Source: Escherichia coli (GTDB taxonomy: Bacteria; Pseudomonadota; Gammaproteobacteria; Enterobacterales; Enterobacteriaceae). From it: DNA of 552 nt. Each line of letters begins with the position of its first letter. Within the stretch, counting starts at the first letter, position 1. The translations under genes were made by a program, and so were the position numbers. Location: assembly GCF_003334255.1 (NCBI RefSeq), contig NZ_QOWU01000224.1. One strand, 5' to 3'. Below the pieces are notes generated by a model, which searched no databases, was not told the DNA's origin, and saw nothing but the letters and a program-made list of their open reading frames with translations. Of this stretch, positions 1 to 552 are shown in pieces.

Positions 1-320
1 TCGTGGTGACATTGTCTGCAGTGCCAGCTGGCTTTACGCACCACGGGTAAGGCATCCGGTACGAATTGCTGCAGACGTTTAATCAACTGTATTTCTCTGC
101 GCTCCGGCCTGACATAAGGGCACTGTTGACCGTGCTCTGTCAGCCTGTCGTCAGTGTGTTCAAACCAGGGAAGTTCAGTTTCGTATTGCGGATGGTATCT
201 GAGTGCACTGCCACACAAGTGGCAGGTGTAGTTAGCATAAGGTGCGGCCTGTGCAGTACGGGCGCCCGTCAGACGTCCGTTGCCATCAAGAGCGATAAAG
301 GATTTTGCGTACATAGTCAT
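1..320 (-). CDS. Hypothetical cysteine/histidine-rich (putative zinc-ribbon) protein, N-terminal 106 codons; 3' end lies beyond the window. Start may instead be the in-frame ATG at 314..312.
   Basis: Manual reverse-complement translation: ATG at 320..318, frame open to position 1 (106 codons plus 2 nt), in-frame TGA upstream at 380..378 with no intervening ATG or GTG. GAGG lies 3 nt upstream of the first ATG. Charged-residue content is typical of a globular protein. Motifs: C33-x2-C36...H55...C67 and C101-x2-C104-H-H. Absent from the ORF track, presumably because no stop is reached inside the window. Confidence 0.6.
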   Translation of the reverse strand, partial: MTMYAKSFIALDGNGRLTGARTAQAAPYANYTCHLCGSALRYHPQYETELPWFEHTDDRLTEHGQQCPYVRPERREIQLIKRLQQFVPDALPVVRKASWHCRQCHH

Positions 321-323
321 ATA

Positions 324-327
324 CCTC
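324..327 (-). promoter_or_regulatory. Shine-Dalgarno-like GAGG (minus strand reads ctGAGGtatATG)
   Basis: Minus-strand sequence gctgaggtat immediately precedes the ATG at 320..318. Spacing is 3 nt to the first ATG (short) and 9 nt to the second ATG at 314..312 (acceptable). Confidence 0.45.
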
Positions 328-398
328 AGCCGCCAGACGACACGCAGGCAACAGCCGTCCCGGTACGGGCAGCGTGGTCAGGGTGTGAATGGCGGTTC

Positions 399-428
399 AG
401 TTAAAATCTGGACTGGAGTTTGGGTAAA
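399..428 (-). promoter_or_regulatory. Weak sigma70-like promoter candidate for the minus-strand gene (-35 TTTACC, 18-nt spacer, -10 TTAACT)
   Basis: Minus strand reads TTTACC (plus 428..423), then caaactccagtccagatt, then TTAACT (plus 404..399). Both hexamers match consensus only partially and the spacer is long. This would place the transcription start about 70 nt upstream of the ATG. Confidence 0.2.
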
Positions 429-440
429 GCAGGCTGGTTG

Positions 441-455
441 CTGTTACAGCACTGT
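441..455. repeat. Cluster of alternating CTGT/ACAG half-sites (CTGT-t-ACAG-ca-CTGT)
   Basis: Plus 441..444 ctgt, 446..449 acag, 452..455 ctgt. Adjacent half-sites are exact reverse complements with 1-nt and 2-nt centres. Confidence 0.45.
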
Positions 456-473
456 GGTTGTCACACAATGGAA

Positions 474-497
474 CACTGACGTAAAAAACAGTCAGTG
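474..497. repeat. Perfect 7-bp inverted repeat CACTGAC-N10-GTCAGTG with an A-rich spacer; candidate operator or RNA hairpin
   Basis: Plus 474..480 cactgac, spacer 481..490 gtaaaaaaca, 491..497 gtcagtg, which is the exact reverse complement of the left arm. It sits about 155 bp upstream of the minus-strand start codon. Confidence 0.6.
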
Positions 498-552
498 GGC
501 GAGTGGATACATCGTTGCCGCCAGACAACAACCCATACTTTTGGTTTGCCGG

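Follow-up and report, generated by a model that had tools for sequence, protein, structure and literature searches.

The question raised by this locus is which of its two strands codes for protein. The window, meaning the whole analysed stretch of 552 bases of Escherichia coli DNA, contains on the plus strand a complete open reading frame (ORF) of 112 codons (66..404) and on the minus strand a frame that is open to the left edge. A first-pass annotation, made from the letters of the sequence, had proposed that the minus-strand frame, which did not appear in the accompanying ORF list, is the real gene and the plus-strand ORF its antisense shadow. The domains, the homologs, the intact frame and dN/dS agree with this proposal, and we assign a probability of about 0.9 to the reading that positions 1-314 on the minus strand hold the first three-quarters of a genuine protein-coding gene and that ORF 66..404 is a non-coding shadow of it. 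The gene was indeed missing from the list, but only because the ORF lister does not report frames that are cut by an end of the source.

Compared by megablast, the window was 100% identical to many complete E. coli chromosomes. Its sequence was matched in 3783 of 5426 complete E. coli genomes (~70%), with a median of two and a maximum of six places per genome; a copy of at least 99% identity is carried by roughly 2,300 genomes. The sole annotated RefSeq feature beneath the window matches was a minus-strand CDS labeled "putative zinc ribbon protein", and RefSeq already carries the frame as WP_000270978.1 (133 aa). In the reference locus NZ_CP025892.1 (here L001), in which window base 1 corresponds to base 8001, this CDS occupies 7913-8314 on the minus strand, that is, window position 314 down past the left edge. 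The window (1..314, minus strand) accordingly holds codons 1-104 and two bases of codon 105, as read from the RefSeq record, the translation, the Pfam matches and dN/dS, and the remainder of the gene is found in the 88 bases past the left edge. The leftward extension of the contig that had been suggested as a check gave 29 more codons and then a stop, leaving an intact product of 133 aa. The rest of the window (315..552, minus strand) is, according to the annotation, the 5' leader and spacer between a YagK/YfjJ (inovirus Gp2-like) gene and the zinc-ribbon gene, and is partly conserved. The window is chromosomal island DNA of E. coli, and the minus-strand gene is an ordinary, already known genomic-island gene for a small zinc-ribbon protein. 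The concern that the locus would be mis-called applies to the plus-strand ORF, which is non-coding, but not to the public annotation, since RefSeq already annotates the minus-strand gene.

The earlier statements about the letters of the minus strand were found to be correct. No stop interrupts the frame between position 377 and the left edge; an in-frame TGA (378..380) closes it upstream, and it comprises 106 codons when counted from position 320; a Shine-Dalgarno-like GAGG is present at 324..327. Regarding the start codon, the claim of a canonical ATG at 318..320 stands in so far as this ATG exists within the open frame, but the likelier start is the ATG at 312..314 (MYAKSF...), and the upstream one is probably unused. 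The downstream ATG is preferred because it is the start used by RefSeq, because the GAGG lies 9 nt upstream of it and only 3 nt from the ATG at 320, and because of its conservation: every one of the nine related loci read upstream of the gene retains it, whereas four of the nine lack the ATG at 320 (ATA in two E. coli loci, CTG in Citrobacter, CAA in Salmonella). The N-termini of the homologs (MYAKSF or MFAKSF in 8 of 8 compared) and the Pfam DUF7828 model, which begins at residue 2 of the 133-aa form, argue for the same choice. In the alignments the homologs carry AGGA or GGAG at the position of the GAGG. In a collection of 15 billion proteins the 133-aa form was recorded on at least 1000 contigs and the 135-aa form on 419, so that the longer form is called by some annotators.

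The minus-strand product matched two Pfam families, DUF7828 (PF25165; E 5.2e-31, score 106.6, residues 2-87, model positions 1-87 of 87) and Zn_ribbon_11 (PF11682; E 8.4e-9, residues 94-126, of which only 94-104 are encoded within the window). The DUF7828 domain, which includes a conserved PWFEH motif, is encoded at 54..311 on the minus strand, and the beginning of Zn_ribbon_11 at 1..35. In two family alignments, the second of which was made of members 24-57% identical to the query, residues C31, C34, F51, H53, C65, W97, C99, C102, G108, C112, C115 and G118 were each invariant or at least 90% conserved; the ordered Cys/His motifs noticed at first reading are therefore real, and are conserved in relatives of that divergence. 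The putative metal ligands of DUF7828 are C31 (224-222), C34 (215-213), H53 (158-156) and C65 (122-120). C99 (20-18) and C102 (11-9) form the first CxxC knuckle of the ribbon, and the second (C112/C115), read from L001, is encoded past the left edge of the window. All eight putative ligands are present in WP_000270978.1. The conservation of these columns suggests two small metal-binding modules, a CCHC module in DUF7828 (C-x2-C...PWFEH...C) and a C-terminal C4 ribbon (CxxC-x9-CxxC); the frame is presumably translated, and its product probably binds zinc.

Relatives of the protein numbered 285 in the databases (Escherichia, Salmonella, Citrobacter, Klebsiella, Enterobacter, Edwardsiella and Serratia), nearly all of them with both Pfam domains. 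When a profile was run against 1.84 billion cluster representatives, 281 matched at E <= 0.001, and nearly every one of these was a stand-alone protein some 125-140 aa long. All 32 members of a divergent family set carried DUF7828, and 31 of them Zn_ribbon_11. The family defined by these two domains is small and centred on the Enterobacterales.

Selection on the two frames was assessed in a codon alignment of the gene with eight homologs, namely four divergent E. coli copies and one copy each from Edwardsiella, Salmonella, Citrobacter and Klebsiella. Over the 104 codons within the window, sense dN/dS was 0.09-0.27, with differences mostly at third positions; the same alignment columns read in the frame of the plus-strand ORF gave 0.9-1.4. 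Furthermore, the antisense frame gains stops inside the span of the plus-strand ORF in three of the eight homologs (M11, Edwardsiella and Citrobacter). As judged from these aligned sequences, the minus-strand gene is under purifying selection. The comparison of codon composition and GC3 that had also been recommended favored the minus frame, but weakly: the codon-usage log-likelihood ratio was -1.7 bits for the minus frame vs -11.1 bits for the plus frame, and GC3 likewise discriminated poorly between the strands.

The plus-strand ORF is antisense to the zinc-ribbon gene in the frame whose codons lie exactly upon those of the gene: both 66 and 312 are divisible by three, so that the codon boundaries of the two frames coincide. 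A stop in such a frame requires a TTA, CTA or TCA codon on the sense strand. These three made up 1.2% of the codons in local reference genes and one of the 104 codons of the gene in the window, its single TTA, the reverse complement of which is the TAA at 48-50 that bounds the plus-strand ORF on the left; on the right the ORF ends at a TAA in the spacer (402-404). At a frequency of 1.2%, the chance of 83 consecutive stop-free antisense codons is about 0.37, and a long open antisense frame is therefore to be expected by chance where the sense gene uses so few of these codons. The ORF starts with TTG, as had been noted, and the only sequence resembling a ribosome-binding site that had been pointed out, 'taagg' at 48-52, lies 13 nt before it and includes the bounding stop. 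Its product matched nothing in Pfam even at E <= 10 or in NCBIfam, and the exact product was absent from the collection of 15 billion proteins. The ORF was not annotated in any RefSeq genome matched, and no gene caller on record made exactly this ORF. The plus-strand ORF is an expected by-product of the register rather than a signal, and is non-coding. It resembles the shadow ORFs known as an artefact of gene finding in its register, in its bounding by a rare TTA, in its unconstrained evolution and in the lack of any exact-sequence, Pfam or NCBIfam match, and no difference from the textbook case was found.

Among the alternatives, the one that survives best accepts the minus frame as a gene by origin and regards it as a decaying pseudogene of a cryptic island, yielding no functional protein. 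Although the surroundings are rich in IS elements and pseudogenes, the tandem paralog described below is frameshifted in one strain, and fragmentary or altered family copies exist in the databases (e.g., P0006, which lacks C31), the copy in the window is intact over 133 aa and retains all eight ligands, the identical protein occurs on at least 1000 contigs, and the low dN/dS across species (0.09-0.27) indicates that the family is maintained by selection; decay at this locus appears quite improbable. That both strands code, as a true antisense overlapping gene pair, is very improbable indeed. The plus frame is open across 83 sense codons in the window and stays open there in five of the eight homologs, but openness of this length is what the rarity of TTA, CTA and TCA predicts (P about 0.37), the frame is without purifying selection, Pfam domain or any exact copy in the protein collection, and its end sits in poorly conserved spacer. 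The reverse assignment, with ORF 66..404 as the real gene and the minus frame as its shadow, has a negligible probability, for the completeness of its 112 codons within the window and a codon-usage score only about 9 bits below that of the minus frame are outweighed by the TTG start with its badly placed Shine-Dalgarno-like sequence, the dN/dS of 0.9-1.4, the stops in three of eight homologs, the product without Pfam, NCBIfam or exact match among 15 billion proteins, the lack of annotation in RefSeq genomes, and the location of the two Pfam domains on the minus frame instead. The two observations named beforehand as speaking against a minus-strand gene, homologs for the plus-strand product only and a minus frame broken just beyond position 1, were not made: the domain searches with both translations gave two Pfam domains for the minus product and no Pfam or NCBIfam match for the plus product, and the homology search with the minus product gave the 285 relatives.

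The minus-strand gene is preceded on the same strand by a gene of the "inovirus Gp2 family" (YagK/YfjJ), whose stop lies 22 bases past the right edge of the window. The wider neighborhood in L001 contains Hha-like, AlpA-like and GTPase genes, Ag43, many IS elements and fecIR. An arrangement in which a YagK/YfjJ-like gene is followed by a DUF7828/Zn_ribbon_11 gene, with AlpA nearby, recurs in E. coli, Edwardsiella, Klebsiella and Citrobacter, and also with relatives of about 30% identity. The pairing is frequent and not universal, as in the Salmonella locus the upstream YagK/YfjJ gene was not called, and in the CP4-6 region of E. coli K-12 yagK (b0277) is flanked by yagJ and yagL, with no DUF7828/zinc-ribbon gene adjoining, so that this region supplied no K-12 gene name for the family.

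Downstream of the gene in L001 (7491-7925, minus strand) lies a tandem paralog of 144 aa, annotated as "zinc-ribbon domain-containing protein", which overlaps the 3' end of the gene by 13 nt and is 30% identical to its product (E 3e-15). The corresponding paralogs in two other loci (L006 and L012) carry the same two Pfam domains. A paralog was present downstream in seven of the nine loci of the codon comparison, with an overlap of 4 or 13 nt wherever the records give coordinates. The succession of YagK/YfjJ gene, zinc-ribbon gene and paralog on the same strand, with overlaps, suggests co-transcription and translational coupling. A promoter scan of L001 7400-9300 gave no sigma-70-like site, and terminator-like sites in the same region were at chance level. 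As no promoter-like site was found, the gene is probably co-transcribed with the Rep-like (YagK/YfjJ) gene, and it is probably translationally coupled to the paralog.

This context suggests that AlpA-type chromosomal islands carry the gene as part of their backbone. The downstream genes vary from locus to locus (DpdD, SNF2 helicase, genes with SMEK_N, CTD10, MC6 or DUF2326 domains, T6SS genes, IS elements), so that the zinc-ribbon gene appears to mark the edge of variable cargo. Defence- or conflict-like genes were often seen downstream of the family gene at L008/L009, L010/L011, L016 and L017/L018, examples being DpdD with PLDc_2, SNF2/DEAD helicase, SMEK_N, CTD10, MC6, DUF2326 and a WYL/WCX regulator. 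In Pseudomonas islands with defence cargo, integrase, AlpA and an inovirus Gp2-like protein have been counted among the likely core functions (10.1101/2024.08.29.610337). The protein is encoded in 32 of 72,556 plasmid records; a tblastn search of 50,697 phage records gave no match to it.

The spacer shows several features of its own. The window as a whole gave no Rfam match at E <= 1. A leader block at 341-372 (CTGCCCGTACCGGGACGGCTGTTGCCTGCGTG on the minus strand), about 30-60 nt upstream of the start codon, can still be made out at the loci of Salmonella, Citrobacter and Klebsiella and at one metagenomic locus (protein 42% identical), the remaining spacer having diverged. Within it CTGCCC and GGGACGG are kept and the 4-5 nt between them vary, as they would in a small hairpin or in a binding site of two parts; the structure obtained for the leader with RNAalifold was weak (-5.8 kcal/mol), with no compensatory pair. 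Positions 474-497, after the YagK/YfjJ gene, form an inverted repeat of 7 bp without mismatches (CACTGAC-N10-GTCAGTG), the loop of which contains an A6/T6 run. The sequence TGTTTTTTACGTCAG is largely kept in Klebsiella and only partly in Citrobacter, the stem being kept in neither; the terminator pattern was not fitted by this repeat. A direct repeat, GCCGCCAGAC(G/A)ACA, occurs at 329-342 and 517-530, its two copies being 188 bp apart, and may be due to chance. At about position 402 (L001 about 8402), the similarity of ~97% to the gene and proximal leader ends abruptly in a set of E. coli genomes, and in other genomes the spacer is about 110 nt longer; the spacer is thus a mosaic junction between island variants.

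Regarding known systems, the protein is a plain member of the Enterobacterales family with DUF7828 and Zn_ribbon_11 (formerly DUF3279), named 'putative zinc ribbon protein' in RefSeq and 'Ybl85' in UniProt; it agrees with the family in its full-length domains, its length of about 130 aa, the ligand pattern and the genomic context, and no difference was found. Searches of PHROGs, PADLOC and NCBIfam with the protein and its paralog gave nothing; for the Gp2-like neighbor no PADLOC family was matched, and one PHROG, of unknown function, was. The AlphaFold2 model of the protein has a mean pLDDT of 82. Neither by sequence nor by fold search was a match found among solved structures, the best result of the sequence-profile search of the PDB being RPB9 at a non-significant E of 0.06, and the best 50 Foldseek matches listed from AFDB50 all look like relatives from the same family. 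A literature search on the DUF7828/Zn_ribbon_11 family found nothing relevant in the library covered.

Two further likenesses were considered. By our own reading of the alignments, the N-terminal layout 'A..G..v.A...(Y/F).C..C...l......(W)F.H......C' is shared with the N-terminal domain of CoiA (CoiA_N, PF25164), whose motif has been described as a putative C2H2-type zinc finger (bioRxiv 10.1101/2024.02.06.579203). CoiA_N was matched by 8 of the 32 divergent family members at E <= 0.1 (best 1.3e-3) and by none at E <= 0.001, and the protein of the window gave no match to it at E <= 10. CoiA differs in its PD-(D/E)XK nuclease core (PF06054), which is absent here, a C4 zinc ribbon being present instead. 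Membership in the CoiA competence nuclease family was rejected, with CoiA_N below threshold, PF06054 absent and a length of only 133 aa. One family member bears the name 'Competence protein' in UniProt. Transcription factors with two zinc ribbons, such as the RNA polymerase II subunit RPB9, are likewise small and consist of two Cys-rich zinc modules and a linker, but the first module here is of the CCHC type with the PWFEH motif and not a C4 ribbon. Some UniRef relatives carry spurious 'DNA-directed RNA polymerase' names.

As to function, the context allows a tentative proposal, which we hold to be possible without being the likelier outcome: the protein may belong to the island backbone as a small accessory factor that depends on zinc and has nucleic acid or a partner protein as its binding target. 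Such a factor would serve the Rep-like or regulatory module of the island rather than act as an enzyme. A more specific version is more doubtful still: DUF7828/Zn_ribbon_11 proteins might be the dedicated zinc-dependent partner of YagK/YfjJ in AlpA-type islands, binding DNA, RNA or the Rep-like protein and helping to control replication, excision or expression at the cargo boundary, with the leader block (372-341) possibly taking part in regulation.

For annotation the outcome is reassuring rather than new, as RefSeq/PGAP already calls the minus-strand gene. The locus provides a worked example of two pitfalls: an ORF list from which run-off frames are dropped hides a real gene, and the codon-on-codon antisense frame readily gives long shadow ORFs. 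The residual interest is modest and lies in the family itself, which is widespread in E. coli and whose proposed role is tentative, and in the close linkage of the gene to the YagK/YfjJ-AlpA backbone of chromosomal islands with adhesins, toxin-antitoxin genes and defence-like genes as cargo.
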